From a virus: a DNA stretch of 59,973 nucleotides. The DNA lies in IMG/VR virus record IMGVR_UViG_3300045988_079322. The stretch is one strand, 5' to 3'. The notes under the pieces are model-generated. The model saw only the letters and a program-made list of their open reading frames with translations, was not told the origin of the DNA and did no database searches. The translations under genes were made by a program, and so were the position numbers. Shown piece after piece: positions 46,763 to 59,430 of the stretch. Positions within the stretch are counted from its first letter, which is position 1, and the number at the start of each line of letters is the position of its first letter.

Positions 46763-46785
46763 GGGATATTTTTGCCCTAACTGTG

Positions 46786-47651: not shown

Positions 47652-47660
47652 CAGTTTATA

Positions 47661-47696
47661 AACCCTGCCTTGCAAAACACAAGGCAAGGCAGGGTT
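47661..47696 (+). terminator. Hairpin terminator
   Basis: AACCCTGCCTTG-n12-CAAGGCAGGGTT. Confidence 0.45.
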
Positions 47697-47726
47697 ATAA
47701 TAATTAAAAGAAAGGGGTATACTATA

Positions 47727-47873
47727 TGTATCAATTACAGGTTTTAGCCAATGAGAAAATGCGCTATTATGAACCATCCACCCTTTCAATGGCAAGATGG
47801 AAAGCCAGTCACGAGATAGTCAATCCCAATCATTGGATTGTAGATTTATCCAGTGGAGAAATCGTAGATTAAA
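47727..47873 (+). CDS. Micro-ORF, 48 aa
   Basis: AAAGGGG Shine-Dalgarno then ATG 47727. TAA at 47871-47873. Confidence 0.3.
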
Positions 47874-47918
47874 AAGAAGCTGACCTAACGGCTATACGGG
47901 GAGAAAGGATAAAAGACT

Positions 47919-48221
47919 ATGAACAATTATATTAAGTGGTTCGTTGGGCCTACTTTTAGAAAGCATGAATTTATTAAACTTTTGCGGTATAAGATGAATG
48001 TGCGTTCCGCAGAGGTAGAGGACGGCATCATCTTAGACCTGGATGCTTTTAATGCCATGCGAGTGGCCTATATGCCACACTGGGCTTATATCAATAGAAA
48101 GTTTATCAATAGCAATCTGCATACCAGAATTGCAAGCGAAGATGAATATAAGATTGCTATGGTTGGAGATACAATCGGTACTGAATGGGTTAAAGAACAG
48201 GAGGCAAAGAAATGGAAATGA
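47919..48221 (+). CDS. Hypothetical protein, 100 aa
   Basis: Intact ORF after GGAGAAAGG. TGA stop. Confidence 0.45.
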   Translation: MNNYIKWFVGPTFRKHEFIKLLRYKMNVRSAEVEDGIILDLDAFNAMRVAYMPHWAYINRKFINSNLHTRIASEDEYKIAMVGDTIGTEWVKEQEAKKWK

Positions 48222-48364
48222 GAATTATTAAGCGGATAGGAGGCGGCATTTGTGCCGCTCTCCTACTCTGGACAGTTCTTAGTTGGGCTGATATAGTGGC
48301 GGATAACTGTGAGCCAAACCCACAGCACAGCGAATATAATATGTTCGTTCTCATGACTAAATAA
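48218..48364 (+). CDS. Micro-ORF, 48 aa, hydrophobic N-terminus
   Basis: ATG overlaps the preceding TGA (ATGA). TAA stop. Confidence 0.3.
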   Translation: MRIIKRIGGGICAALLLWTVLSWADIVADNCEPNPQHSEYNMFVLMTK

Positions 48365-48376
48365 TAGGAGGAAAAA

Positions 48377-48610
48377 ATGTATAGAGGGACTTATATCGAC
48401 GCCATGGGCCGCAAGCGCAGAGAGATGGGATATTTCAGTCTTAATAAGCCCACTCTGAATAAACTCCATATACCAGTAATTGTCCAAGCGAGAGATAAGA
48501 CAAGTGCGGCGAATAAAATCAATAGGAAATATAAATTGCGTATAAGTCCCAGCAATCTGCGGGAGGTGCCGATGGGCACGGGCTATCTCATGGAAACCAT
48601 GGAGCTGTAA
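48377..48610 (+). CDS. Hypothetical basic protein, 77 aa
   Basis: AGGAGG Shine-Dalgarno then ATG. Confidence 0.45.
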   Translation: MYRGTYIDAMGRKRREMGYFSLNKPTLNKLHIPVIVQARDKTSAANKINRKYKLRISPSNLREVPMGTGYLMETMEL

Positions 48611-48687
48611 AGGAATAATACTTGACTGGCAATCTACACAAAGATTGCCAGTCATTTTTATGCACTTTTCCATATTGACTTTTCGCC

Positions 48688-48720
48688 GGGCCGCCAGCGT
48701 GCGCCGCGGCCCGAATTTTT
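48688..48720 (+). terminator. Cassette copy 1: GC-rich hairpin terminator
   Basis: GGGCCGC-n11-GCGGCCC followed by AATTTTT. Confidence 0.5.
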
Positions 48721-48795
48721 ATTTATTCGGCAATTTCAACAATTATATGACCGAAAGTTTGTGCAATTCGACGAAAGTTTTTCTCCCGAAATTAC

Positions 48796-48824
48796 TTGAC
48801 ATTCCTTTTCCCATGTGTTATTAT
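48796..48824 (+). promoter_or_regulatory. Cassette copy 1 promoter: TTGACA-17-TATTAT with TGT
   Basis: Preceded by TTGTGCAA at 48749-48756. Confidence 0.55.
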
Positions 48825-48877
48825 ATACTTGTCCAAAGGGACAGGTCACAAAAAGAATTTGAAAGGAAGTAAAAAAA

Positions 48878-49117
48878 ATGACTTTAGATATGGTTGCTTG
48901 GTTACTTTCTCCGCTTGCAGAAGATACTATGTTCTTTGACGGGGAGGGATTCGAAATTATCAATAAGAATACCCAAGCTCATTACCATGAATTACCTGAT
49001 GGTAGAATAACTCTGGGAGGAGACGTAATCGAGGTATCTAAGGAATGGGTTCTGGGACTTCAGGTAACCGACATTGAGGCAAGAGATAACAATTTAATCA
49101 TTTATGTAGATGGTTAA
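48878..49117 (+). CDS. Hypothetical protein, 79 aa
   Basis: Intact, after GGAAGT Shine-Dalgarno-like sequence. Confidence 0.45.
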   Translation: MTLDMVAWLLSPLAEDTMFFDGEGFEIINKNTQAHYHELPDGRITLGGDVIEVSKEWVLGLQVTDIEARDNNLIIYVDG

Positions 49118-49179
49118 GAAAACTTGCGGGAGTGGAGGCCACAAACCTCTACTCCCCACGATAAAAAGGAGGAATAAAT

Positions 49180-49395
49180 ATGATTGCTGTTATTAAATTT
49201 GAAAGTGCAGAAAAGTCTGTGGAGTTTGGAAACACAATTTGTAATATGGCTGGCTGGTGTTTGGGTCATCCTCTCAATTCCAATGCTACCGGCTGTGTTT
49301 GTACACTTGATTTTAATACCGGCGACAAGCAAGATAGAGCCTTATATAATTATCTGCTAAAAATTGGAGCTTTCGAGGAGGTGGAACTAAAGTGA
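49180..49395 (+). CDS. Hypothetical protein, 71 aa
   Basis: AAAGGAGG Shine-Dalgarno. Confidence 0.45.
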   Translation: MIAVIKFESAEKSVEFGNTICNMAGWCLGHPLNSNATGCVCTLDFNTGDKQDRALYNYLLKIGAFEEVELK

Positions 49396-49510
49396 GTATT
49401 GAGCGTTTACCGCATACATATCCTATCGGTTCCACTGTTTGGACAAATAAGGGATATGGCACAGTTCTACTTCACATTGGTAAATACCATCTGGTTTGGC
49501 TACAGAGATT

Positions 49511-49546
49511 AGGGCTGGCGTAATGCCGGCCCTATTGATTTTTTCA
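49511..49546 (+). terminator. Intrinsic terminator
   Basis: AGGGCTGGC-GTAAT-GCCGGCCCT followed by ATTGATTTTTT. Confidence 0.5.
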
Positions 49547-49597
49547 AAAAAATATATTATAATAATTATAGAAAAATAAAGAAAGGAGTTTTTCTAA

Positions 49598-49714
49598 TGA
49601 CCTTAGAAGTGCTGAAAGCACTCGCGGTTATTTTGGAGTTCTGTTTGAACTAGGATTCTTGCAAGAATTGTCCTATGTCTCAGTTCTGCCAGAAAATGCC
49701 TTGCGAGTGGTAAA
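49598..49714 (+). CDS. 38-aa Cys-rich micro-protein with one in-frame TAG
   Basis: AAAGGAG Shine-Dalgarno then ATG 49598. ...EFCLN-TAG-DSCKNCPMSQFCQKMPCEW, TAA stop. Confidence 0.3.
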
Positions 49715-49801
49715 TGTTCCTTCCGATTGTTCTAAATCGGCGATTCCCGTGATGGAGTCGTTTTTCGCACGAGCCTAGGTCACTAGAATTTATTTATCAA
49801 A

Positions 49802-50035
49802 ATGCAAGAAACTACTTTCTCTCGCAAATTGGATTCAAGTGGTAGAATTATGATTCCGATTCGTTTGCGTGAACAAATGGGACTTACTTCCGGTTAGGAA
49901 TACTATTTCACTACTATGGTAAAAGATGGCAGAAAATACATCTGCATTGACTGCGGATCGGTTGATTCCTCACTTGAAGAAGCTATGAAAATTATCCAAG
50001 CAAACGGATTAAAGATTGTTGAAAATGCCGATTGA
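49802..50035 (+). CDS. AbrB/MazE-family (swapped-hairpin) DNA-binding protein, 77 aa, interrupted by one in-frame TAG
   Basis: RKLDSSGRIMIPIRLREQMGLTSG-TAG-EYYFTTMVKDGRKYI matches the AbrB/MazE consensus (GRVVIPIELRRxLGIxEKDxLEI). TGA stop. Confidence 0.5.
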
Positions 50036-50079
50036 CTTCTCAAAAGAAAGGGAGTTGTTGGTATGCAGAAATTAATGAC

Positions 50080-50110
50080 CTCCTGAAATTCAGGAGGTTC
50101 TTTTTTTATT
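50080..50110 (+). terminator. Intrinsic terminator
   Basis: CCTCCTGAAATTCAGGAGG followed by TTCTTTTTTT. Confidence 0.6.
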
Positions 50111-50115
50111 CGTTC

Positions 50116-50152
50116 GCCCGGCCGTGCACCACAGGCGCGGCCGGAATTTTTT
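50116..50152 (+). terminator. Cassette copy 2: GC-rich hairpin
   Basis: CCGGCCG-n13-CGGCCGG followed by AATTTTTT. Confidence 0.5.
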
Positions 50153-50165
50153 ATCAAGAGGCAAT

Positions 50166-50197
50166 TTGCACAATTTTAGGCTCGAATTGTTGTGCAA
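50166..50197. promoter_or_regulatory. Cassette copy 2 operator: TTGCACAA-N16-TTGTGCAA perfect inverted repeat
   Basis: TTGCACAA at 50166-50173 and TTGTGCAA at 50190-50197. Confidence 0.55.
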
Positions 50198-50226
50198 TCT
50201 GATGGAAGATTTTTTCCCAAAATCGC

Positions 50227-50255
50227 TTGACTTTCTATCTGTTATCTGTTATACT
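50227..50255 (+). promoter_or_regulatory. Cassette copy 2 promoter: TTGACT-17-TATACT, followed by the conserved leader ATCATCAAGAGGGGAGAAC
   Basis: 17-nt spacer. The leader 19-mer at 50260-50278 is identical to 53034-53052. Confidence 0.55.
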
Positions 50256-50308
50256 TGTATCATCAAGAGGGGAGAACAAAAGCCCTCGAAACAAAAGGAG
50301 AATGAGTT

Positions 50309-50542
50309 ATGTATCTGGTAATGGCTGACAGTAGAGAAAAGATTATCGGCGTTTCTGATACTGAAACTGGCGCACGCCATGCGGGATGGGACTGGCTCAA
50401 GGCCCAGTATTCCGAAAGCGAGTGGAGCCAAATTCTGGAAGATATGGACTATGAGAATGAAGGGGACTTGCGGCATGACCTTCTCATGGGCGCATATTGG
50501 GAAGATTTCGATATGGAGATTATCGAGGTTAAGAGGGTATAA
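50309..50542 (+). CDS. Hypothetical acidic protein, 77 aa
   Basis: AAAAGGAG Shine-Dalgarno. Confidence 0.45.
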   Translation: MYLVMADSREKIIGVSDTETGARHAGWDWLKAQYSESEWSQILEDMDYENEGDLRHDLLMGAYWEDFDMEIIEVKRV

Positions 50543-50571
50543 ACCCTCTTAACCAGAAAAGGAGTATATAT

Positions 50572-50724
50572 ATGACTACCTTCACAATGATTGTTTTGAT
50601 TGCGTTTGTGGCCTGCCTTGCATGGCAGTTAATGGCGGCTGCTCAAAAGAGCTGTATTCGGCTTGAAATCATGTTTGCCGCAGAAATTCTAATGTTCGCA
50701 TATTTGGCAAAAAATTTGATGTAA
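50572..50724 (+). CDS. 50-aa hydrophobic micro-protein (single transmembrane)
   Basis: AAAAGGAG Shine-Dalgarno then ATG 50572 (MTTFTMIVLIAFVACLAWQLMAA...). TAA at 50722-50724. Confidence 0.4.
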   Translation: MTTFTMIVLIAFVACLAWQLMAAAQKSCIRLEIMFAAEILMFAYLAKNLM

Positions 50725-50728
50725 AGGG

Positions 50729-50757
50729 TTGACAAACCGCTTAAACAGTGGTATAAT
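50729..50757 (+). promoter_or_regulatory. Class A promoter: TTGACAAACC-17-TATAAT (ends GTGGTATAAT)
   Basis: Consensus hexamers, 17-nt spacer. Confidence 0.6.
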
Positions 50758-50808
50758 CAATAATGTAAAGAGAAGGAAAACTCATTAAACCAGAAAGGAA
50801 ATATTGCT

Positions 50809-51039
50809 ATGTATAGAATGACTGAGCAGGATAGACAGGGGATTATTCTTCTGCATAAGACCATGGAGGAGTTCTGCCCAGGAGAAGCAGCACAGGCAAT
50901 GCTCCAGTCTTTGGGAAAATTCCTGCGGATCGGCATGTGTACTCCCGATGACGCGGCCGATATTATCAAGGGTATTTTCGATGAGGAAGCCGATAAGACA
51001 GTTGATGAAATGACTATGATGGATTTACTTTCCTTGTAA
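50809..51039 (+). CDS. Hypothetical protein, 76 aa
   Basis: Intact ORF after GAAAGGAAA. Confidence 0.45.
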   Translation: MYRMTEQDRQGIILLHKTMEEFCPGEAAQAMLQSLGKFLRIGMCTPDDAADIIKGIFDEEADKTVDEMTMMDLLSL

Positions 51040-51047
51040 AAAAGGGG

Positions 51048-51076
51048 TTGACAAACTGCCCCTTCTGTGGTACAAT
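51048..51076 (+). promoter_or_regulatory. Class A promoter: TTGACAAACT-17-TACAAT
   Basis: TTGACA at 51048, GTGGTACAAT at 51067-51076. Confidence 0.6.
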
Positions 51077-51136
51077 AAGACTATGGAAGGGGCAGCCCCC
51101 CAAAAATAAATTAAAATAAGAAAGGGAGTTTTAGAA

Positions 51137-51535
51137 ATGCGTGTTACTAAGAGGATTGAAGCCTATATCAATGATGAGGTCAACAAGATTGCGAACGCCA
51201 AGCGAGAGGAAATCAGAGCCAAGTATGCGGACGCTATGAAAGAGTTTGAGGATTTCATCGAGGAAGGCCGAAAAGAGATTGAGGCGCTGAATACAAGGAT
51301 TATTGAGCGCGCCACAGCGAAGGGATATAAGCTCCGCCGCTATTATGACCAGGAGTGTGCCAAGTCAAATATGTGCAGTCTTTACAACCCCATCAACCAA
51401 ACGATGGATGAAGAGCTGTCCACTGTGACAAAGTGGGTAGAGGAAAATGCAAGTCTGATCTGCGTCAAGCTGGAAATGGGCGGCGACATGAAAACTCTGT
51501 CTACTCTGCTTGAAGAACTGCGCAAGGAGTTTTAA
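51137..51535 (+). CDS. Hypothetical protein, 132 aa, predicted helical
   Basis: GGGAG Shine-Dalgarno, TAA stop. Confidence 0.45.
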   Translation: MRVTKRIEAYINDEVNKIANAKREEIRAKYADAMKEFEDFIEEGRKEIEALNTRIIERATAKGYKLRRYYDQECAKSNMCSLYNPINQTMDEELSTVTKWVEENASLICVKLEMGGDMKTLSTLLEELRKEF

Positions 51536-51586
51536 GGAAGGAGGTGGAGAGGGCAAGGCTATTGCTTGCCCTCTCTAATAAAAAAA

Positions 51587-52045
51587 ATGAAAGCAACTGG
51601 CATTGTGCGCCGCGTTGATGATCTCGGCCGGGTAGTAATTCCTAAGGAAATTCGTCGGAATATGAATATTCGGGAGGGCGACCCGCTAGAAATCTTTATT
51701 GAAGATGGCGGAGTGGTTTTCAAGAAATATTCTCTACTATCTTCTTTTGCTCCTCAGGCCGCACATATTCAAAAAGTTTTGAGCATTAACGGCATTTCCG
51801 CGTCGGTTTTTGATAATTCAAGTCTTTTGTGCGGTCCTCGCCCCTTCGGAATGTCAAAGACCCCGGACGAATGGCTCAATATTCGTAATTGGGGTACTGA
51901 ATGGAAGGGAAAGTCGTTGTTTGTTACTCCTATTATCGCAGAAGGTGAGGTAATCGGCTTTATTTGCTATAAAAACGATAAAGAATCGGCGCATGATATG
52001 ATTCGACTTTCTGCGCAATTTCTAGCTCAATTTGCAGAAAACTAA
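51587..52045 (+). CDS. SpoVT/AbrB-type transcriptional regulator, 152 aa: N-terminal swapped-hairpin DNA-binding domain plus a C-terminal (GAF-like?) domain
   Basis: MKATGIVRRVDDLGRVVIPKEIRRNMNIREGDPLEIFIEDGGVVFKKY closely matches the AbrB N-terminus. ATG 51587 follows a hairpin at 51551-51571. Confidence 0.6.
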   Translation: MKATGIVRRVDDLGRVVIPKEIRRNMNIREGDPLEIFIEDGGVVFKKYSLLSSFAPQAAHIQKVLSINGISASVFDNSSLLCGPRPFGMSKTPDEWLNIRNWGTEWKGKSLFVTPIIAEGEVIGFICYKNDKESAHDMIRLSAQFLAQFAEN

Positions 52046-52068
52046 GAGGGCTTCGGCCCTCTTTTTTT
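52045..52068 (+). terminator. Intrinsic terminator
   Basis: AGAGGGC-TTCG-GCCCTCT followed by TTTTTT. Confidence 0.6.
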
Positions 52069-52084
52069 ATATCAAAATTTCGAC

Positions 52085-52115
52085 GGCGCGCTGACGCTCA
52101 CAGCGCGCCGAGTTT
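52085..52115 (+). terminator. Cassette copy 3: GC-rich hairpin
   Basis: GGCGCGCTG-n7-CAGCGCGCC followed by GAGTTTTCTT. Confidence 0.5.
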
Positions 52116-52130
52116 TCTTGTTTGTAAGTT

Positions 52131-52162
52131 CTACACAATTTTTGACTTGAAATCTTGTGCAA
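52131..52162. promoter_or_regulatory. Cassette copy 3 operator: CTACACAA-N16-TTGTGCAA (left half degenerate)
   Basis: Same spacing as copies 2 and 4. Confidence 0.4.
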
Positions 52163-52171
52163 TTTGCCATC

Positions 52172-52200
52172 TTGAAATTATCCTTAAATTATGGTATTAT
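52172..52200 (+). promoter_or_regulatory. Cassette copy 3 promoter: TTGAAA-17-TATTAT with TGG
   Basis: The segment GCCATCTTGAAATTATCC...TATGGTATTATTA is nearly identical to copy 4. Confidence 0.55.
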
Positions 52201-52227
52201 TAGTACAGAAAGAAGGAGGGACACTAA

Positions 52228-52452
52228 ATGAAACCTTCAAAGTTTATTCGGCCTAATGAGTGTTTAACTGTGGCTGAAATCTACCGCCGCCAATTTGGTG
52301 GTACTACCACCCCAGAGAATTATGGGGTCTATATGCAAGCTATTCTTTTGCGCGACCCTCTAATTTATGTGGATTATACGTCAATGCCTTATAAGGTATA
52401 TCGGCATAAAAATTTCTTTGAAAAACTTGTTGACAAGATAGGCAACAGGTAG
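52228..52452 (+). CDS. Hypothetical protein, 74 aa. Its TAG terminator lies inside the next promoter.
   Basis: AGGAGGG Shine-Dalgarno. The stop is TAG 52450-52452. Read-through would add 12 residues, up to TAA 52487-52489. Confidence 0.45.
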   Translation: MKPSKFIRPNECLTVAEIYRRQFGGTTTPENYGVYMQAILLRDPLIYVDYTSMPYKVYRHKNFFEKLVDKIGNR

Positions 52453-52458
52453 TATAAT
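52430..52458 (+). promoter_or_regulatory. Promoter: TTGACA-17-TATAAT overlapping the 3' end of the preceding gene
   Basis: TTGACA at 52430, TATAAT at 52453. Confidence 0.55.
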
Positions 52459-52480
52459 AAAACAAAAGGAGGTTATATAT

Positions 52481-52945
52481 ATGATAACTAAAAAAATGCT
52501 CTGCTTTGATATGGATGGGACTATTGCAGATCTGTATGCAGTCCCTAACTGGCTCGAAAAACTCCGCAAGGGAGACCCCAGCCCATTCCAAGACGCCGCC
52601 CCTATGTGGGATATGAAGGCCCTTCGAAATGCGCTTCTAAACGCAATCAATAAAGGGTGGGAGGTTAGAGTTATTACATGGTTGCCCCCTGAAAGCCCCC
52701 CTGAATATAAGAAAGCAGTCACAGCCGCCAAAAAGGAATGGCTTGCAAGGCATAAATTTCCGGCCCATAAATGCCATTGTGTGGCGTATGGAACAACTAA
52801 AGCTAAATGCGTATTCCGCAGTTTTTATGAACCGCCGTTCATTCTCTTTGATGATAACGACAAAATTAGAAACGGCTGGCATTTAGGGGATACTGTAGAC
52901 CCCCAAACTACAAACATTATTGAATATATCAACAATCTGGACTAA
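52481..52945 (+). CDS. HAD-superfamily 5'(3')-deoxyribonucleotidase-like protein (NT5C family), 154 aa
   Basis: HAD motif I CFDMDGTIADL at the N-terminus. ILFDDNDKI resembles a C-terminal Asp motif. Overall size and layout match NT5C-type dNMP nucleotidases. Confidence 0.55.
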   Translation: MITKKMLCFDMDGTIADLYAVPNWLEKLRKGDPSPFQDAAPMWDMKALRNALLNAINKGWEVRVITWLPPESPPEYKKAVTAAKKEWLARHKFPAHKCHCVAYGTTKAKCVFRSFYEPPFILFDDNDKIRNGWHLGDTVDPQTTNIIEYINNLD

Positions 52946-53002
52946 ATAAAAGGGGCGGGTGAAATCCCCGCCCCATATCTGGAAAATACGTAAAAAAGTT
53001 CT

Positions 53003-53030
53003 TGACAATCTCACTACATTGTGATATAAT
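53003..53030 (+). promoter_or_regulatory. Promoter: TTGACA-16-TATAAT, followed by the conserved leader ATCATCAAGAGGGGAGAAC
   Basis: Leader at 53034-53052. Confidence 0.55.
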
Positions 53031-53079
53031 TTAATCATCAAGAGGGGAGAACCCTCATAAAAGAAAGGGAGTTTTTGTT

Positions 53080-53228
53080 ATGATGAATTTCTACTTTAAG
53101 ACTGCGGCGGGCCATGTGTTCGTGGGTGTGGGTAAGGATGTTGACCGCGCCCGTTCTGACGCCAAGCGCAAGGCTGGTTCCCTTTGGTCGCCTTCGGCCA
53201 AGTGCTTTAAGGTCGGGAACGCCATTTA
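53080..53228 (+). CDS. Micro-protein, 48 aa, basic
   Basis: AAAGGGAG Shine-Dalgarno then ATG 53080. TAA at 53226-53228. Confidence 0.35.
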
Positions 53229-53260
53229 AGGCGTTCCCCGATAGGAAGGAGGTCTCAAAA

Positions 53261-53452
53261 ATGTTTGCTTTTCTTGTTGCTGTCCTCGCGGTTCTTGCCA
53301 CCTGCGTAATTTCTTTCTTCGGCACAGCCCTGCTGATCTGGCTCATCTGTTGGGCGTTCGCTCTCACTTTCTCATGGAAAATCACTTTCGGCATCTGGAT
53401 TATCATTTGCATCCTCAGAAGCATTTTCAAAACCGTAATTCATAGGGATTAA
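53261..53452 (+). CDS. 63-aa hydrophobic membrane micro-protein
   Basis: AGGAAGGAGG Shine-Dalgarno then ATG 53261 (MFAFLVAVLAVLATCVISFFGTALLIWLICWAF...). The ORF-track call 53114..53452 is an N-terminally over-extended version. Confidence 0.4.
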   Translation: MFAFLVAVLAVLATCVISFFGTALLIWLICWAFALTFSWKITFGIWIIICILRSIFKTVIHRD

Positions 53453-53454
53453 AT

Positions 53455-53490
53455 AAAAGCGGGGTGAAAATCCCCGCTTTTATTTTTTTT
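53455..53490 (+). terminator. Intrinsic terminator
   Basis: AAAGCGGGG-TGAAAAT-CCCCGCTTT followed by a T-run. Confidence 0.6.
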
Positions 53491-53497
53491 ATAACTT

Positions 53498-53535
53498 GGC
53501 CGGCCCGCGCACAAGCGCCGCGGGCCGAATTTTTC
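53498..53535 (+). terminator. Cassette copy 4: GC-rich hairpin
   Basis: CGGCCCGCG-n9-CGCGGGCCG followed by AATTTTTCTTC. Confidence 0.5.
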
Positions 53536-53548
53536 TTCTATTGTAATG

Positions 53549-53580
53549 TTGCACAATTTTCAAGCAGAAATCTTGTGCAA
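53549..53580. promoter_or_regulatory. Cassette copy 4 operator: TTGCACAA-N16-TTGTGCAA perfect inverted repeat
   Basis: Coordinates 53549-53556 and 53573-53580. Confidence 0.55.
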
Positions 53581-53589
53581 AATGCCATC

Positions 53590-53618
53590 TTGCAATTATC
53601 CCGAGACTATGGTATTAT
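53590..53618 (+). promoter_or_regulatory. Cassette copy 4 promoter: TTGCAA-17-TATTAT with TGG
   Basis: About 130 nt of transcribed leader with no convincing ORF before the next promoter. Confidence 0.5.
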
Positions 53619-53753
53619 TATCATGTCAGGAGGGAGAGGCCAAGAAATCAAGAGGTCGCGAACTCTTAGAAAGTAGAGGAAGCAAAGAGAAAATAACTAA
53701 ATTCCGATTAGCTATCGGGAGGATTAAGTTAAAAAGTCTTTCCTTTTTCCCTC

Positions 53754-53782
53754 TTGACACCAAGCATTAAATATGCTATAAT
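53754..53782 (+). promoter_or_regulatory. Promoter: TTGACA-17-TATAAT, followed by the leader TCATCAAGAGAAGAAAGG
   Basis: TTGACA at 53754, TATAAT at 53777. Confidence 0.6.
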
Positions 53783-53816
53783 AATATCATCAAGAGAAGA
53801 AAGGACTTGATAGATT

Positions 53817-54641
53817 ATGATTGATAAACGCCGACATTATGTGCTGGTGGTCGATACAGAAACCGCCAACACATTGACCGAGACTATCCCCGCTGAAATC
53901 GGTGAGAACGGGGAAATCATTACCCCGGAGCGCATCCGTATGGATATGTCAAATGTTTTGGTGTATGACTGCGGCTGGGCGGTCGTAGACACCAAGGGCA
54001 ATATTTATGAAACCGCAAGTTTTGTAAATCGGGACATTTTCAATGACGAGCGGGATTTAATGCGGACGGCCTATTATAACTGGAAAATCCCCCGGTATGT
54101 GGAGGAATTGCGTGCCGGCAGTCGCAAGATGGCTACTACCTATGAAATCCGTCAGGCCATGCTGGATACTATCGAGCGATACGGCATTAAGGAGGTCGCC
54201 GCATATAACGCCCGCTTTGATGATAACGCCCTTCGGGTTACTCAGCGTTGGGTCACTTGTTCCAAGTTCCGGTATTGGTTCCCCTTTGACAGCGTGGAAA
54301 TTTGGGACATTATGAAAATGACACAAGATGTCATTTGTCAGATGCCCACCTATAAAAAGTTCTGTGAAGAACATGGGTATATGCAGGCTAACGGCGTTCC
54401 CCGCAAGACTGCGGAAATCGTATGGCGGTTTATCTCCGGCAATACCGATTTTGAGGAAAGCCACACGGGGCTGGAAGATGTTCTGATTGAAGCGGAAATC
54501 ATGTGGTATTGTATGCGCCAGCATAAGCCCATGAGAAAGGCTCTGTATGAGAACAAGCGGGAGTTTCCGCCCATGACAGATTTTCAGCGTCAGCTTTCCG
54601 CAAGTCTGCGGCAAATTCCGACAATCCGGGTCGGGGCTTAA
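53817..54641 (+). CDS. DEDDh (DnaQ-like) 3'-5' exonuclease, 274 aa
   Basis: Exo I VVDTETAN, Exo II AYNARFDDNAL, Exo III ESHTGLEDV. Confidence 0.6.
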   Translation: MIDKRRHYVLVVDTETANTLTETIPAEIGENGEIITPERIRMDMSNVLVYDCGWAVVDTKGNIYETASFVNRDIFNDERDLMRTAYYNWKIPRYVEELRAGSRKMATTYEIRQAMLDTIERYGIKEVAAYNARFDDNALRVTQRWVTCSKFRYWFPFDSVEIWDIMKMTQDVICQMPTYKKFCEEHGYMQANGVPRKTAEIVWRFISGNTDFEESHTGLEDVLIEAEIMWYCMRQHKPMRKALYENKREFPPMTDFQRQLSASLRQIPTIRVGA

Positions 54642-54670
54642 TGCCCCGCCCGGTAGAAGGAGAAATAAAG

Positions 54671-54820
54671 ATGCTTCAAGGATTAAAAAATAAGGCTATC
54701 CGCTTTCTGCTTGAGCGGACGTGCCCGGATGTATTTACCATTAAGGCTATGCTTTCCAAAGTGACGCGGAAAGAGATGCAGTTTTATGTCGATCAATTCT
54801 ACTCAAAGAAAGAGGGTTAA
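54671..54820 (+). CDS. Micro-protein, 49 aa
   Basis: GAAGGAG Shine-Dalgarno then ATG 54671. TAA at 54818-54820. Confidence 0.3.
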   Translation: MLQGLKNKAIRFLLERTCPDVFTIKAMLSKVTRKEMQFYVDQFYSKKEG

Positions 54821-54822
54821 AT

Positions 54823-55005
54823 ATGAAAATAAAAACTGTATATACCTCTTCCCTTTGTCCAGATGCTGTTTTCATGGCGCTTGAAATTATCAAGCGTATG
54901 GGATGGTGTCATGATGAACCAGATGAAAATGGGGATATGTTGGTATCTATTCCCATTGAGGATGAACACTTGTTTGATTTTTTGGATAATTGTCTTTTTG
55001 GATAA
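54823..55005 (+). CDS. Hypothetical acidic protein, 60 aa
   Basis: Intact ORF. Confidence 0.4.
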   Translation: MKIKTVYTSSLCPDAVFMALEIIKRMGWCHDEPDENGDMLVSIPIEDEHLFDFLDNCLFG

Positions 55006-55009
55006 AATA

Positions 55010-55045
55010 AAGAGAGCTTCGGCTCTCTTTTTATTTTTTATTTTT
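55010..55045 (+). terminator. Intrinsic terminator
   Basis: AGAGAGC-TTCG-GCTCTCT followed by TTTTATTTTTT. Confidence 0.6.
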
Positions 55046-55048
55046 GGC

Positions 55049-55082
55049 GGGTCGCGCATGGGCGGCGCGACCCGAGTTTTTC
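55049..55082 (+). terminator. Cassette copy 5: GC-rich hairpin
   Basis: GGGTCGCGC-n7-GCGCGACCC followed by GAGTTTTTCTTT. Confidence 0.5.
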
Positions 55083-55092
55083 TTTGTAAATG

Positions 55093-55170
55093 TTGCACAA
55101 AAATTTCAGCCCCATTTTGTGTAAAATTCTGCACAAAAGCCCTATCCCAAAATTCTGATTTTTTGTGCAA
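55093..55170. promoter_or_regulatory. Cassette copy 5 operator cluster: TTGCACAA-N16-TTGTGTAA plus TGCACAAA and TTGTGCAA
   Basis: Half-sites at 55093, 55117, 55130 and 55163. Confidence 0.45.
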
Positions 55171-55178
55171 TTTGCCTA

Positions 55179-55207
55179 TTGCAATCTGCTTTCTGGTATG
55201 GTAAAAT
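55179..55207 (+). promoter_or_regulatory. Cassette copy 5 promoter: TTGCAA-17-TAAAAT
   Basis: 17-nt spacer, TGG at -15. Confidence 0.45.
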
Positions 55208-55277
55208 ACATTCAGAAAGTGAGAGAGACGAACGGCAGACAGCGACAGCGAACTTTCAAAAATCTTTCAAAAACCCC

Positions 55278-55306
55278 TTGACAAGCCCTTGTGAGTGTGC
55301 TATAAT
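55278..55306 (+). promoter_or_regulatory. Tandem promoter 2 of 4: TTGACA-17-TATAAT
   Basis: Consensus hexamers. Confidence 0.6.
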
Positions 55307-55354
55307 AAGTACAGAAAACAAGGCAAGGAACCTTGAAAAGTGAATAAAAAGGGC

Positions 55355-55383
55355 TTGACAAACTCTCCAAAGTGTGTTACACT
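55355..55383 (+). promoter_or_regulatory. Tandem promoter 3 of 4: TTGACAAACT-17-TACACT
   Basis: Class A -35 context. Confidence 0.5.
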
Positions 55384-55450
55384 ATAAGGGGAACGAGAGA
55401 GGGCAAACAAGTAAAGGGCAAAAGTTCTTGAAAAAAGTTTGAAAAACCTC

Positions 55451-55479
55451 TTGACAAACTCCTAATAGTGTGGTACAAT
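55451..55479 (+). promoter_or_regulatory. Tandem promoter 4 of 4: TTGACAAACT-17-TACAAT
   Basis: Identical -35 context to the promoters at 47195 and 51048. Confidence 0.6.
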
Positions 55480-55528
55480 ATAATCAAAGGACAAGGACAG
55501 TCCTAAAAACCAGAAAGGATGTATCATT

Positions 55529-55930
55529 ATGAGTGAGAAGAAAATCCGCATTACCAAGGCCCAGCGTTTTGAGGACATTAAGGCCCTCTTGACCGGCGGC
55601 GAGGTAAAGCATGGCACGACCATGGAGATTGCCATGACTGTTATCGACCATGAGTTGGAGCTGTTGCGGAAGAAGAATAGCTCCGGGGGAGATAAGAAGC
55701 TGACTCCGACTCAGCAGGAGAACGAGAGCCTTAAGGAGCAGATTATGGAGTATCTTGCCGGTCTGCCCGAGGACACCGACGGCGTGACCTGTACCGACAT
55801 TTTCAAGTCTGTGCCTTCTCTGGCCGCTTTCTCCACTCAGAAGGCCGCCGCCCTTGTGCGGATGCTCAAGCTGGACGGCCGTGTGACCTGTCAGGAGAAG
55901 AAGGGCAAGTCTCTCTTTAAGATGGCGTAA
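55529..55930 (+). CDS. Hypothetical early protein, 133 aa, driven by four stacked promoters; possible winged-helix C-terminus
   Basis: GAAAGGA Shine-Dalgarno. Intact. Confidence 0.5.
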   Translation: MSEKKIRITKAQRFEDIKALLTGGEVKHGTTMEIAMTVIDHELELLRKKNSSGGDKKLTPTQQENESLKEQIMEYLAGLPEDTDGVTCTDIFKSVPSLAAFSTQKAAALVRMLKLDGRVTCQEKKGKSLFKMA

Positions 55931-55938
55931 CCCCGTAT

Positions 55939-55963
55939 AGGGCGGGGTGAAAATCCCCGCCCT
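55939..55963 (+). terminator. Hairpin AGGGCGGGG-TGAAAAT-CCCCGCCCT (weak U-tract)
   Basis: Same loop TGAAAAT as the terminator at 53455. Confidence 0.4.
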
Positions 55964-56068
55964 ACTCTATCTTAGGGGGGTGAGACTATATCAAGCCGTA
56001 TCACTGACGCCGAGAGGTTATCGAGATATAAGCCTCTCCAACTGACACCAGAGGAGGAGGCGGAGCTA

Positions 56069-56386
56069 TTGGCCTATGACAAGGCGGTGGAAGCTGGCGA
56101 AAAAACGCAATACGATTTATCGCCCGATAAAGCGAAAATCGCGCAGAAATTCGCCCATGCTGGCACAAGAAAAACCCCTACCGCCTACAAATTTACACCA
56201 CGGCAACGCAAGCCAAACGCAACTAAAGGCGGCATAATCGCAGAGCTGGCGGACTTTTTGGAAAAAAATAGTCAATTCTCGATTGTTGACCTTGCCATAA
56301 CAAACAAGGAACGCCAAATTGCGTTTTCTATCGGTGGGGATAGTTTCGAGTTAACGCTTGTGCAAAAGCGTAAACCGAAAAAATAA
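56069..56386 (+). CDS. Hypothetical basic protein, 105 aa (TTG start)
   Basis: GAGGAGGAGG Shine-Dalgarno 8 nt before TTG 56069. Confidence 0.45.
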   Translation: MAYDKAVEAGEKTQYDLSPDKAKIAQKFAHAGTRKTPTAYKFTPRQRKPNATKGGIIAELADFLEKNSQFSIVDLAITNKERQIAFSIGGDSFELTLVQKRKPKK

Positions 56387-56463
56387 CGGGGTAGGGCTGG
56401 CCTACCCCAGCCCTACCAGAAAAGAGGTATTCCATAGTTAGCACACAGACACGGGAAAAGGAG

Positions 56464-56793
56464 TTTCTATACGTCGGGCATTATGTAGACGTAAAGGGGC
56501 GCTATATTCTCAAGATTGGCACGACAAACGACCTTGAAAGACGTGCCGCCGAGCATACAAGGAATTACAAACGAGCGAGAGACTATACTATGCCTACGGA
56601 TAGTGCTTTTTCCTATGATTGGTATATCCGGTTATCTAAGTATAATACCCTTCGATATGAGGACTTGAACCGGACTTTATGGCAAAATATGGGAATTGGA
56701 CATTTTATCAGAAATGACCGTTTTCTCTGTGATACGCCCCCGCGCATGGTAACAGTCATTATCCGCAAGGCATACCCCGTTATTCTGAATTAA
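56464..56793 (+). CDS. GIY-YIG nuclease-domain protein (T5orf172-like). No canonical start codon upstream of the domain; possible non-AUG start, frameshift or pseudogene.
   Basis: Motif LYVGHYVDVKGRYILKIGTTNDLERRAAEH (GIY...YIG...R...H) starts right after GAAAAGGAG. The first in-frame ATG is at 56590, after the motif. Confidence 0.4.
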   Translation, partial: FLYVGHYVDVKGRYILKIGTTNDLERRAAEHTRNYKRARDYTMPTDSAFSYDWYIRLSKYNTLRYEDLNRTLWQNMGIGHFIRNDRFLCDTPPRMVTVIIRKAYPVILN

Positions 56794-56798
56794 GAAGA

Positions 56799-56827
56799 AC
56801 CACCCCAGAAATGGGGTGGTTTTTTTG
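56799..56827 (+). terminator. Intrinsic terminator
   Basis: ACCACCCCA-GAAA-TGGGGTGGT followed by TTTTTTT. Confidence 0.6.
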
Positions 56828-56837
56828 TCCCAATATG

Positions 56838-56875
56838 CGGGCGGTCCGCTTGCGTGCGCCGCGGACCGAGTTTTT
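56838..56875 (+). terminator. Cassette copy 6: GC-rich hairpin
   Basis: CGGTCCGC-n11-GCGGACCG followed by AGTTTTTCTTC. Confidence 0.5.
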
Positions 56876-56929
56876 CTTCTATTTGCATTTTAGATAATTT
56901 TCGCTCGATTTTTTGTGCAAAATGACTAC

Positions 56930-56958
56930 TTGACATTCTCCTAAAAATGTGGTATTAT
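56930..56958 (+). promoter_or_regulatory. Cassette copy 6 promoter: TTGACA-17-TATTAT, with TTGTGCAA at 56913-56920 just upstream
   Basis: Ends ...TGTGGTATTATTA, as in copies 3 and 4. Confidence 0.55.
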
Positions 56959-56984
56959 TATCTCAACAAAGGAGGTCAAAGAGA

Positions 56985-57437
56985 ATGGAGAGTTTGAAGC
57001 AGTTTCGAGTTAGTTACAAGGTAACTTATCACTGTTGGGGCTATAAAGGAATTTTCCGCAGAGAGGCTTATAGATTTTCAGTCACGTTTTACAATGACCC
57101 TATGGAAACTCTATCCTATATTAACGCCAGAACTGAAAAAGAAGCTATTGAAATAGCAGAAACCTATATCAAAAAGCATATTGAAAGATATGTTGAGCAA
57201 TCGGAGAAAAATCAAGAAACCGGCGATTATATGATTTTGGGCGGGAATACTCCTCCCGATGGAAAATTCAAAATGTCAGATAAAATCTATTTTATCTCTG
57301 GATATGAATATGAACTTGTTTCTTGTAAAATGGTTTGCGATTGGTCAAAAGAAAGAGTTGAAAGAGCGGCTAAAGAGCTTACTATGGAACAATTCAAGCA
57401 AATTTTTAATGAAATTCCAACCGAGATTTTCAAATAA
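56985..57437 (+). CDS. Hypothetical protein, 150 aa
   Basis: AAAGGAGG Shine-Dalgarno then ATG 56985. Confidence 0.5.
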   Translation: MESLKQFRVSYKVTYHCWGYKGIFRREAYRFSVTFYNDPMETLSYINARTEKEAIEIAETYIKKHIERYVEQSEKNQETGDYMILGGNTPPDGKFKMSDKIYFISGYEYELVSCKMVCDWSKERVERAAKELTMEQFKQIFNEIPTEIFK

Positions 57438-57454
57438 AGAAGGGAGATTTTAAG

Positions 57455-57718
57455 ATGGATAATTCTGGATTCAATATTGCGGAAATGAATGATGAAACTT
57501 TGCAATATCTTCTTTCCGCTTGTGAAAAAGAAATGCAAGCAAGAAAGAATAAAGATAAAGAGAGAAAATGGAAGGCTGTCAGAACTGCTATTGCTGACTA
57601 TGTAGAAACATATGGCGATATTGTTTGTTCCTTGGCATATGAGGATGACTTTAGAATAAATCTCCACAATATTGATTTTGATACCATCGGAGTTTTTGAA
57701 GAAAGAGATAATTACTAA
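57455..57718 (+). CDS. Hypothetical protein, 87 aa
   Basis: GAAGGGAG Shine-Dalgarno. Confidence 0.45.
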   Translation: MDNSGFNIAEMNDETLQYLLSACEKEMQARKNKDKERKWKAVRTAIADYVETYGDIVCSLAYEDDFRINLHNIDFDTIGVFEERDNY

Positions 57719-57723
57719 AATAA

Positions 57724-57750
57724 AGAGGGCTTCGGCCCTCTTTTTATTTT
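57724..57750 (+). terminator. Intrinsic terminator
   Basis: AGAGGGC-TTCG-GCCCTCT followed by TTTTATTTT. Same stem as the terminator at 52045. Confidence 0.6.
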
Positions 57751-57768
57751 CATTTTTATTAAACTTGG

Positions 57769-57800
57769 CGGGCCGGTCGCGGGCGACTCGGCCCGAATTT
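57769..57800 (+). terminator. Cassette copy 7 (partial): GC-rich hairpin without an attached promoter
   Basis: GGGCCG-n13-CGGCCC followed by GAATTT. Confidence 0.4.
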
Positions 57801-57802
57801 CC

Positions 57803-58404
57803 CCGATCGGACCATAGCGCAAAATTTTCATAGCAAGTTGGCCATAACGCAACTTAGTCTAGAATCTCCCGAAATTATACCATAATCCGATCGGTTTTCT
57901 ATCTTACTCCGATCAGTCCAGCAATAGCGGCTTTCTCGTCCATTTTTTATAATAAAAAAATTCAAAATTGTCAAGTGTTCATAAGACTAATATTATCCCC
58001 TATACAGCTAACAATAGCAAAGATGTTGCTATGAAAAACAAATACCACCGAGAGATTTTTCTGCGGTACCGATCGGTTTAACGAGATTTTATAATAAAAA
58101 TAGCTAGAAAATTCTACTTTTAACTAGGTAAACCGATCGGTCCGCAGGTTTTTCCTCTTGTTTTTCTCTTAATATAGCGAAAATTCTCTAAAAATCTAGC
58201 AAAAACGCACATTTTTCTAATAAAATTACTTAAAAATTAGCAAAATTTGCCTCATTTTCAGCAAATCTTCTTGATGTTCACCCTTTCTATACTTTTATAG
58301 ATACAATTAAAAAGACTTATTCTCTAGCTAAGAATTTTCTAGTCGATGCCTCAATCAGAGAAGTTATTTTAGAATAAAAGATCTTTAAGCTAGGGCCGAT
58401 CGGT
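57803..58404. repeat. AT-rich noncoding region carrying six copies of the palindrome CCGATCGG (four as ACCGATCGGT), plus a 20-bp inverted repeat pair flanking a 55-bp AT-rich spacer. Candidate origin or control region.
   Basis: Copies at 57803, 57887, 57909 (variant CCGATCAG), 58068, 58132 and 58395. CTGCGGTACCGATCGGTTTA (58061) opposes TAAACCGATCGGTCCGCAG (58129). No ORF of 40 aa or more. Confidence 0.55.
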
Positions 58405-58468
58405 TGCAATTTATAAAATAATATTATATAATATAAATATAAAAGGAAAGAAAAGAGGAATATATTCC

Positions 58469-58942
58469 ATGGATTATACTAATATGATTAAATGTGCTCT
58501 TGATGGCGGTGCGTCTCTCGACGATATTGCTAAGGAGTTTACTGATGCTCTAAATGTCTTTAATAAGCAGAATCAGGTTCGGAAGGCTCGTCAGCAAGCT
58601 TTGGATGAAATTGAGTGCGACTTTCTAAATGCTGTTGATGATGAGCATCTTGATGCAGAGCATATCGGACAGCTTGCAGTTCTTATTTATGCTCCTTCTC
58701 ACCCTGAGTGGGATGCTGATACTATCAATAAATATGCAGAGGCTATCACTGAGACTGCTCGTATTTCTGCCCGAATTGTCGGGATGAATAATATCAATGA
58801 TGCACTTGCAGCGACAGAGGAAGAGCTTGATAAGATAATTGAGAAGGCGATTCAGGAGATGCGAAATGAATCGGTCTCCGTTTCCATCAAGAGCAACAAT
58901 GATGAAGATGTGGTAGCTAAGTTCTTGAGAGGGCTTAGATAA
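58469..58942 (+). CDS. Hypothetical acidic protein, 157 aa
   Basis: AAAGAGGAA Shine-Dalgarno. Intact. Confidence 0.5.
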   Translation: MDYTNMIKCALDGGASLDDIAKEFTDALNVFNKQNQVRKARQQALDEIECDFLNAVDDEHLDAEHIGQLAVLIYAPSHPEWDADTINKYAEAITETARISARIVGMNNINDALAATEEELDKIIEKAIQEMRNESVSVSIKSNNDEDVVAKFLRGLR

Positions 58943-58944
58943 AA

Positions 58945-58974
58945 GAGAGGTAGAGATACCTCTCTTTTTTTATT
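58945..58974 (+). terminator. Intrinsic terminator
   Basis: AGAGAGGTA-GAGA-TACCTCTCT followed by TTTTTTT. Confidence 0.65.
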
Positions 58975-59079
58975 GCTATTAAACAAGAGGAAAGAAGTAG
59001 AAGAATCGCGGAAGCCTAGGTTTACGATCGTTTTGACGAGTGTTGTGATGGTTGTACCTAGACCCGATCGGCACCCAAC

Positions 59080-59140
59080 TCTACTATTTCTCCAATTTTC
59101 TCTACTATTCTTCTAATTTTCTCCAATTTCACTTATATTC
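59080..59140. repeat. Direct repeats TACTATTTCTCCAATTTTCTC x about 3
   Basis: CTACTATTTCTCCAATTTTCTCTACTATTCTTCTAATTTTCTCCAATTT. Confidence 0.4.
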
Positions 59141-59253
59141 TCCCTATAGTCTATCCACTTTCTTATGGCTTCGCTTGTAATCTAACTCGAATCCTCATAT
59201 AGATTCAATAATCCCTTTTCCTCTACCTCTATTAATCTCTCTTACCCTACCCA

Positions 59254-59403
59254 TTACTCTTCTTCTTGACTTTTCCCTTTAATTTTTGATTCGATTTTTC
59301 TAAAACCTTCTTCCAGCTTTTCAATTCGATTTTCTAAATCATTTGCTCCCATCGTCCCATCTATACTTCCTTGAATATCCTCCCACCTCTGAAAATCTTC
59401 CAT
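59254..59403 (-). CDS. 49-aa coiled-coil micro-protein
   Basis: GGGAGG Shine-Dalgarno 7 nt before ATG 59401-59403 (MEDFQRWEDIQGS...KIKGKSQEEE). TAA at 59254-59256. Confidence 0.4.
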   Translation of the reverse strand: MEDFQRWEDIQGSIDGTMGANDLENRIEKLEEGFRKIESKIKGKSQEEE

Positions 59404-59430
59404 GGTTATCCTCCCTATCCATCGCTTTCT

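Follow-up and report, generated by a model that had tools for sequence, protein, structure and literature searches.

Introduction

The class I sites of Escherichia coli CRP lie at −61.5, −71.5, −82.5 and −92.5. Phage phi29 encodes its own regulator, p4, which recognises a phage-specific inverted repeat with halves about two helical turns apart, centred near −82 of the activated promoter, contacts the alpha-subunit C-terminal domain (alpha-CTD) of RNA polymerase, and can repress a strong promoter from a similar position. The UP element is an A/T-rich stretch that spans about −40 to −60 and is recognised through the minor groove; it serves promoters of the sigma-70 type as a generic, portable enhancer. 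A transcription-start-site paper on a Lachnospiraceae bacterium describes an A-rich, UP-like region only. In Bacillus subtilis, the '−44 element' of trxB is a short oriented element upstream of the −35, with critical bases AGCA, at which Spx acts as an adaptor on alpha-CTD (PMC2801614). AbrB and Abh recognise pairs of TGGNA, for example TNCCA-WWWW-TGGNA and variants, with 1–5 A/T bases between them (PMC3025583), and T4-type phages carry repeated early-promoter stem-loop elements, or PeSLs (PMC2839356, PMC4122927). Here we analyse a promoter-upstream octamer, TTGTGCAA (hereafter the box), and its inverted partner TTGCACAA in the virus record IMGVR_UViG_3300045988_079322 of IMG/VR, a stretch of 59,973 nucleotides that we call the window and to which all coordinates refer. 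An earlier examination of the letters alone (the sequence-only reading) had flagged the pair TTGCACAA-N16-TTGTGCAA as a candidate operator, with a phage-encoded AbrB/SpoVT-type protein as its possible reader. The box proves to be a genuine element upstream of promoters, far from random and under evolutionary constraint, and the reader that we favour would be supplied by the host.

Results

The box and its promoters in the window

Counting both strands, the octamer occurs 13 times in the window against 1.92 expected, a number reached in no shuffle, and 12 of the 13 copies fall within 47028-56920. The complete pair TTGCACAA-N16-TTGTGCAA is exact at two sites only (50166-50197 and 53549-53580; none expected, and no match in any shuffle), so that the flagged palindrome is non-random, although two of its details needed correction. 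Seven sigma-A-type promoters, all with a 17-bp spacer and a TG-extended −10, have TTGTGCAA upstream. The distance of 8–9 nt to the −35 given by the sequence-only reading applies to four of them (9, 9, 8 and 9 nt at 52155, 53573, 55163 and 56913), but at the other three, the flagged site included, the gap is 30, 29 and 29 nt (47061, 48759 and 50190). Left halves are also less regular than had been supposed, with no more than one mismatch in four of seven cassettes, two mismatches in two, and a degenerate or absent half in one (TTTAGATA at 56889); the constant element across all seven is the promoter-proximal TTGTGCAA. The 24 bp between half-site centres stands, as do both clusters of extra half-sites, which read TTGTGCAA-a-CTGCACAA-N16-TTGTGCAA at 47028-47068 and TTGCACAA-N16-TTGTGTAA-N4-CTGCACAA-N26-TTGTGCAA at 55093-55170.

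Six of the seven sites belong to one repeated unit, in which a 27-nt GC hairpin with a T-run is followed after 18–21 nt by the box pair and then by the promoter. The hairpin has the consensus CGGnnCGC...GCGnnCCG, then A(A/G)TTTT, and an ordinary terminator often lies just before it. The cassettes are:

Cassette 1, 47028-47127, plus strand: no family GC hairpin; extra TTGTGCAA at 47028-47035, left half CTGCACAA at 47037-47044, right half TTGTGCAA at 47061-47068; 30-nt gap, −35 TTGACA at 47099-47104, 17-bp spacer, TG-extended −10 TAAACT at 47122-47127.
Cassette 2, 48687-48824, plus strand: hairpin 48687-48713, then AATTTTT; left half TTCAACAA at 48735-48742 (two mismatches), right half TTGTGCAA at 48759-48766; 29-nt gap, −35 TTGACA at 48796-48801, −10 TATTAT at 48819-48824.
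Cassette 3 (the flagged site), 50118-50255, plus strand: hairpin 50118-50144, then AATTTTTT; TTGCACAA at 50166-50173, N16, TTGTGCAA at 50190-50197; 29-nt gap, −35 TTGACT at 50227-50232, −10 TATACT at 50250-50255; drives the open reading frame (ORF) starting at 50309.
Cassette 4, 52084-52200, plus strand: hairpin 52084-52110, then AGTTTTC; left half CTACACAA at 52131-52138 (two mismatches), right half TTGTGCAA at 52155-52162; 9-nt gap, −35 TTGAAA at 52172-52177, −10 TATTAT at 52195-52200; drives 52228-52452 and the HAD nucleotidase gene 52481-52945.
Cassette 5, 53501-53618, plus strand: hairpin 53501-53527, then AATTTTTC; TTGCACAA at 53549-53556, N16, TTGTGCAA at 53573-53580; 9-nt gap, −35 TTGCAA at 53590-53595, −10 TATTAT at 53613-53618; followed by a 190-nt leader, another consensus promoter (53754-53782) and the gene for the DEDD exonuclease (53817-54641).
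Cassette 6, 55048-55207, plus strand: hairpin 55048-55074; TTGCACAA at 55093-55100, N16, TTGTGTAA at 55117-55124; CTGCACAA at 55129-55136, N26, TTGTGCAA at 55163-55170; 8-nt gap, −35 TTGCAA at 55179-55184, −10 TAAAAT at 55202-55207; followed by three further consensus promoters and then the winged-helix gene.
Cassette 7, 56842-56958, plus strand: hairpin 56842-56868; degenerate left half TTTAGATA at 56889-56896, right half TTGTGCAA at 56913-56920; 9-nt gap, −35 TTGACA at 56930-56935, −10 TATTAT at 56953-56958; drives 56985-57437.

Five of the ten pairs in the GC hairpin are changed on both sides, and it folds at −21 to −22 kcal/mol (z −3.3 to −3.8); a terminator scan picked up three of the six copies (cassettes 3, 4 and 6). 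Such covariation argues that the hairpin is real and most simply an intrinsic terminator.

Helical phasing across viral genomes

Scanning IMG/VR for the palindrome returned many single chance matches and, beside them, loci where 10–21 octamers are arranged as in the window, the pair in many cases being flanked by divergent promoters. In these box-rich phage loci the gap to the best promoter was 8–9 nt (64 cases), 18–19 nt (24) or 29–30 nt (7), and the partner spacer N16 (102) or N26–27 (34). Two further scans of IMG/VR were made without fixing the distances or without preselecting the pair. With a free spacer, N15–16 was found in 51 and N26–27 in 41 of 100 pairs, in a set biased against N16; with a free gap, the classes were 8–9 nt (34), 18–19 nt (15), 29–30 nt (13) and a minor class at 24 nt (5), with three or fewer at any other distance. 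An A-tract next to the −35 fills the space in the longer-gap classes. Since gap and spacer both step by ~10.5 bp, the box is phased to the promoter on one face of the helix. Where both boxes are present, the dyad centre lies near −60, −70 or −81 by our own arithmetic from the gaps, and centres of this kind (near −61.5 plus whole turns, on one face) are classical class I positions. The class-I-like placement suggested by the sequence-only reading is thus upheld by gaps locked to helical phase at 8–9, 18–19 and 29–30 nt. A good distal partner accompanies about one third of box promoters in the unbiased scan (a rough estimate) and four of seven in the window. The inverted pair is common, at N15–16 or N26–27, yet the proximal box stands alone at many promoters, and the proximal, oriented octamer is thus the core.

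The same design in gut Clostridia

In 596 Gb of GTDB species-representative genomes, the composite motif TTGCACAA-N16-TTGTGCAA-N8/9-TTGAC (21 specified bases) occurs at 55 bacterial-genome loci, where our arithmetic gives about one by chance. Clostridia-class labels account for 42 of the 55 (Acutalibacteraceae, Oscillospiraceae, Lachnospiraceae, Coprococcus, Ruminococcus and Christensenella), and none of the 55 is in a genome labelled Bacillus or Clostridium. About 21 are phage contigs within bins and carry homologues of window proteins; 32 have no homologue of any window protein. At host loci the motif precedes a crotonase gene with a divergent acyl-CoA dehydrogenase gene, each promoter lying 8–9 nt from its own half-site, and elsewhere genes for anaerobic ribonucleotide reductase (NrdD), a PadR regulator, lipoproteins and very large surface proteins; further sites lie in mobile elements. 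In a Coprococcus catus isolate one site lies in a 326-kb contig among neighbours that look chromosomal by eye, and it is kept in four Coprococcus genomes. If host genes keep the site, its reader must exist in uninfected cells.

Near-identical mobile-element promoters recur in different Clostridia genomes, in one group at loci L212, L246, L255 and L235 and in another at L217, L219, L223 and L245. Within the N16 spacer and between −35 and −10 of these promoters lies another repeated operator that resembles either ATACTCACGCGAGTAT or GTTGCGCAAC. Because the two groups each add an operator of their own around the pair, the box pair seems to act as a generic module. We considered and rejected the box as an old regulon member at acyl-CoA dehydrogenase promoters, as it is absent in related genomes.

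Conservation and exchange among related phages

One relative, L121, is a 114-kb IMG/VR contig, mosaic and near-identical; related proteins also occur in human faecal phage records, and a megablast of 46.9–57.1 kb against GenBank phages returned no match. Upstream of the exonuclease gene (cassette 5), both halves are exact in L121, L022, L026 and L035; the N16 spacer is that of the window in L121 and altered in the other three. On this alignment, exact halves around a free spacer are a mark of purifying selection. Cassette 3 could be aligned in nine relatives, in all of which the distal (left) half and its flanks are invariant; at the proximal half, only the window and L104 have TTGTGCAA, whereas L022 has TTGTGCAG and the other relatives have TTGGTGAA or TTGGTGGA.

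Against L121, window positions 46768-57767 resolve into blocks of 99, 97, 78, 87, 83, 69, 95, 92 and 99% identity plus unmatched gaps, with boundaries that coincide with cassettes or adjoin them. Cassette 2 (48628-48880) stands out as a conserved island amid non-homologous flanks, and the segment 56873-57767, comprising cassette 7 and two genes, is absent from L121. This single pairwise comparison suggests PeSL-like exchange of modules with breakpoints at cassettes.

The left half of cassette 3 (50166-50173), which is invariant, reads TTGTGCAA-N8-TTGATA on the minus strand, with TTGACA in relatives (L123, L139-L141 and L153). A minus-strand promoter served by the left half-site was rejected, as a −35-like TTGATA 8 nt away occurs only in cassette 3 and the GC hairpin lies where its −10 should be; the arrangement may be the vestige of a divergent promoter, or may serve as a landing pad next to the terminator.

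Phage-encoded DNA-binding proteins

Three proteins encoded near the cassettes are candidates for reading the box:

49803-50035, plus strand: AbrB-like protein of 77 amino acids, with an in-frame TAG at 49893-49895.
51587-52045, plus strand: SpoVT-like regulator (PF04014, 9.5e-12; B. subtilis SpoVT 2w1t, 1e-22).
55529-55930, plus strand: winged-helix protein of 133 amino acids, with a C-terminal winged helix (AlphaFold2 pLDDT 88).

Both regulators named by the sequence-only reading, the SpoVT-type protein and the TAG-gated AbrB-like one, are therefore real. The former has an AbrB-type swapped-hairpin N-domain near-identical to that of Bacillus SpoVT and a weak match to the SpoVT C-terminal end; the promoter of its operon (51048-51076) has no octamer upstream. 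Foldseek placed the winged-helix protein near Zalpha, SSV1 F-93, ArsR and the PerR/Fur DNA-binding domain (E ~4e-3), and its family has >4000 relatives, mostly unnamed, a few with MarR_2 or BlaI-type Pfam tags. In related phages an octamer lies within 500 nt upstream of 0 of 15 AbrB-like genes, ~5% of 81 SpoVT-like genes, 48% of exonuclease genes and 59% of winged-helix genes. A search for the reader by neighbourhood co-occurrence failed, the commonest neighbours being the exonuclease and the HAD nucleotidase, not regulators.

Coding layout and other features of the window

The phage is TAG-recoded: ORFs cover 19 kb of the window if the standard code is applied, but 57 kb if TAG counts as a sense codon. 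No suppressor tRNA gene, or any other tRNA gene, was found in the window. Recoded genes, including the large terminase and a match to a PHROG 'sigma factor' family, fill a minus-strand block at 6–44 kb (6000-44000), and the plus-strand early region at 44–60 kb (44000-59973) consists of numerous small genes, nearly all in the standard code. The block opens with:

42727-43827, minus strand: first gene of the recoded block, a candidate late-transcription factor (PHROG 5767 'sigma factor', 1.4e-38; zinc ribbon at the end), preceded by a sigma-A-type promoter at 43831-43803.

Genes at 44397-46762 in the early region specify a protein with a FolD C-terminal domain, a macrodomain protein of the microbial PARG type and a peptidyl-tRNA hydrolase (PTH2), an enzyme of note in a phage that reassigns a stop codon. 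In this otherwise standard-code region two adjacent genes, a 38-amino-acid Cys-rich ORF (49598-49712) and the AbrB-like gene 49803-50035, hold one in-frame TAG each, so that full-length products would be made only during TAG readthrough.

Perfect (12/12) sigma-A consensus promoters without a TTGTGCAA box lie at 50729, 52430, 53002, 53754 and 55278, four of the five with a TG extension and some directly 3' of a box promoter (53754 after 53590, for example). Standing as they do among box promoters, they indicate that two promoter classes alternate in the early region. Predicted leaders from several cassette promoters (47134-47160, 48831-48850 and 50262-50285) are alike, with ACTTGTCC...GGACAG or TCAAGAGGGGAGAAC, and TCAAGAGG recurs 3' of the −10 in related phages, L113 and L088 among them.

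A further palindrome, CCGATCGG, is present in six copies (0.23 expected) at 57760-58460 and 59064, five of them in an A+T-rich, ORF-poor stretch. The stretch starts with one more hairpin of the cassette family, the eighth (57769-57795), and a promoter-like site on the minus strand lies within it (57901-57874). It could serve as an origin or iteron region, or the palindromes could form a second family of operators.

Discussion

A host-read box as the favoured explanation

The same box-plus-promoter design is found in gut Clostridia chromosomes and mobile elements, as well as in many of their phages, and the reader is therefore probably a host factor rather than the phage AbrB or SpoVT protein. 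In the explanation that we favour, to which we would give about an even chance of being correct, the box is read by a host-supplied factor that touches RNA polymerase from one face of the helix, and the phage exploits that factor in repeated, insulated cassettes. TTGTGCAA would then be a sequence- and orientation-specific putative protein-binding box upstream of sigma-A-type promoters (TTGACA, 17 bp, TG-extended TATAAT), and its reader, present in uninfected cells, a host transcription factor or an adaptor associated with RNA polymerase. Stimulation would be class I-like, from a DNA face within reach of the polymerase alpha C-terminal domains. The phage may have copied this host 'enhancer' into a portable cassette of strong terminator hairpin, 18–21 nt, box pair and promoter, which would insulate and drive each small transcription unit of the early region. 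The winged-helix, SpoVT-like and AbrB-like proteins of the phage may modulate the cassette promoters, with no specific link to the box in this analysis.

Several observations weigh against this explanation. Activation is read only from the position of the box and from its use at genes assumed to be strongly expressed. The TTGACA that lies 8 nt downstream of the Coprococcus box has no −10 at 16–18 nt, and many of the 'host' records are metagenome bins, in which phage contigs can be mis-binned. The box was not found upstream of acyl-CoA dehydrogenase homologues of 78–89% identity, two locus pairs among which share the divergent crotonase layout; given this absence, host sites can be recent gains, possibly from phages or mobile elements. 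In cassette 3, the half that distant relatives fail to keep is the proximal one, and the distal half is invariant. Lastly, the strong association of the winged-helix family with box-dense regions, given below, would also fit a second reader, one encoded by the phage.

A neighbouring possibility, which we regard as unlikely, is that TTGTGCAA is a lineage-specific promoter module of gut Clostridia (such as Oscillospiraceae, Acutalibacteraceae and Lachnospiraceae), a third beside −35 and −10, read by RNA polymerase itself or by a universal polymerase-bound adaptor and copied by phages and mobile elements as a portable enhancer. Such a module would explain why one oriented, phased box suffices and why it occurs sporadically at unrelated strong promoters.

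Other readings of the box

Might the half-sites instead pair as a stem-loop, in RNA or in single-stranded DNA? The sequence-only reading had named an RNA element on the transcribed strand as the outcome that would overturn a protein site, and the two exact palindromes can indeed form an 8–9 bp stem. The fold is weak, however, at ~−11 kcal/mol with z-scores of merely −1.7 and −2.1, and none of its eight pairs shows compensatory change, against five of ten in the neighbouring GC hairpin. Because the deviations, those of the left half included, are uncompensated, the half-sites appear to be conserved as sequence, that is, as a protein-binding site. Rfam gave no match at the gathering threshold, the proximal box stands alone at many promoters, the spacer alternates between 16 and 26 nt, and a box between terminator and −35 lies outside the cassette's own transcript; we therefore consider a stem-loop hardly credible. 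Very unlikely too, though less so, is that the cassettes are mainly recombination substrates like the PeSLs of T4-type phages, shuffling gene modules around octamers that have no regulatory reader. Six paralogous cassettes with a constant 18–21 nt from hairpin to box, the shifts of identity to L121 at or beside them, the cassette 2 island and the insertion or deletion of cassette 7 with two genes would all follow from that role. It leaves unaccounted for the strict orientation and helical phasing to the −35, the exact octamers with free spacers, and the box at single-copy host promoters; a role in recombination is compatible with one in regulation.

The remaining candidates are proteins of the phage. 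A tetramer of the SpoVT-like (51587-52045) or the TAG-interrupted AbrB-like protein (49803-50035) could bind the palindrome with one N-domain dimer on each pseudo-symmetric TTGnnCAA octamer. Besides the presence of both genes, the idea draws on AbrB-domain ORFs, found in 18 of the 86 viral loci rich in boxes and in 1 of the 135 poor in them, on SpoVT-like loci that were fetched by protein similarity and in some cases proved box-rich, and on published tetramers with two separated DNA-binding heads, AbrB itself taking variable arrangements of motif pairs (PMC3025583). Yet the determinant published for this family is the TGGNA pair with short A/T spacers, not half-sites such as TTGTGCAA and TTGCACAA, and the octamer is rare upstream of the AbrB-type genes themselves, as autoregulation would not lead one to expect. 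Box promoters are present where these phage genes are missing, including chromosomal housekeeping genes among the 32 of 55 bacterial loci, and many AbrB-bearing phage loci, temperate Firmicutes phages among them, are free of boxes. The near-identity of the N-domain to Bacillus SpoVT likewise sits badly with a composite motif that no Bacillus- or Clostridium-labelled genome contains. Attribution to the phage SpoVT or AbrB protein is thus the least supported part of the sequence-only reading, and we think it improbable, although an AbrB of the host may act in trans at the box. The winged-helix protein (55529-55930) is the best phage-encoded candidate binder, better than SpoVT or AbrB, and among regulator-like families its own is the commonest neighbour of box-dense regions in phages. 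If it and its paralogue family read the box, cassette promoters would be switched on or off during infection, perhaps by competition with or mimicry of a host factor, and the host sites would be secondary. A confident DNA-binding fold is predicted; members of the family were seen in 37 of the 86 box-rich loci (~10 kb) and in 7 of the 135 box-poor ones, frequently as two or three paralogues per locus, and also in phages, L061 among them, for which no other gene in common with the window was detected. Within the window its gene follows the densest box cluster (55093-55170), and boxes again precede the gene in L447, where the relative is only 37% identical. Exonuclease and HAD genes are equally box-associated, however, which makes the link, even at 59% of the family's genes, one with the early region rather than proof of specificity. 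Chromosomal box promoters occur in loci without such a protein, most of the relatives listed for it are from metagenomic contigs that are short or of phage size, and half-sites separated by 24 or 34 bp do not suit a winged-helix dimer of the typical kind. We rate this possibility, too, as an unlikely one, if clearly ahead of AbrB or SpoVT.

Implications

A description of the motif was not found in the searchable literature, which is not proof of novelty; a full-text search for the octamer returned just primers and unrelated eukaryotic sites, the sole bacterial match being a primer for mutagenesis of B. subtilis trxB. If the host reads the box as an enhancer, it represents an undescribed cis-element, with its regulator or polymerase adaptor, of abundant butyrate-producing gut Clostridia, their phages and their mobile elements. 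It would then offer a compact, ready-made strong-promoter module for tools in bacteria that are hard to engineer, and a sequence signature for host prediction of uncultured phages, including those with recoded stop codons. It would also make testable how a TAG-recoded phage arranges a standard-code early region as insulated terminator-box-promoter cassettes.

Comparison with known systems

To our knowledge, the consensus sequences of CRP/FNR, Rex, ComA, CodY, AraR, BirA, NtrC and LexA offer no fit to sequence, orientation and spacing together. The UP element resembles the box in lying upstream of the −35, in being placed by helical phase and in fitting the flexible tethers of alpha-CTD; the box differs in its G/C core and in its confinement to particular lineages. 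With a GTGC core in the octamer, and A-tracts that are mere filler in the longer-gap classes, the box is not an UP element. The operators of AbrB, Abh and SpoVT share with it tetrameric readers with two DNA-binding heads and a tolerance for varied arrangements of paired short motifs (PMC3025583), and AbrB-type proteins are encoded in the same genome. Those operators are TGGNA pairs separated by 1–5 A/T bases, without a fixed place relative to the −35, and usually repressive and overlapping the promoter, whereas the box is neither restricted to genomes that bear the phage protein nor regularly found upstream of its gene.

At the level of the whole cassette, the closest likeness is to the PeSLs of T4-type phages (PMC2839356, PMC4122927), in which terminator hairpin and early promoter are likewise repeated between small variable genes and mosaic breakpoints fall at cassettes. 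Six paralogous cassettes with constant internal distances reproduce that arrangement here, in phages of another host clade and with a box pair added to the unit; recombination is in our case suggested by the one comparison with L121.

For the single proximal box, the trxB element TTGAGCAA shares seven of eight bases with the octamer and is similarly short, oriented and just upstream of the −35. Its gap to that hexamer is 5 nt, however, not 8–9 nt (about one third of a turn off), and it has no inverted partner; we accordingly rejected Spx/trxB as the same geometry and retain it as a lead from sequence resemblance only. With phi29 p4 the box has in common a phage setting and halves about two turns apart, and differs in being common to host chromosomes. 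With class I sites of the CRP kind it shares a palindrome upstream of the −35, several positions one helical turn apart (here ~−60, −70 and −81) and the ability to serve divergent promoters; unlike them, its half-sites are everted and 24 or 34 bp apart instead of 5-N6-5, and a single proximal octamer is often enough. By analogy, then, the nearest models for how the box would work are class I activator sites and the phi29 p4 system, and, where it stands singly next to the promoter, the Spx/alpha-CTD element.

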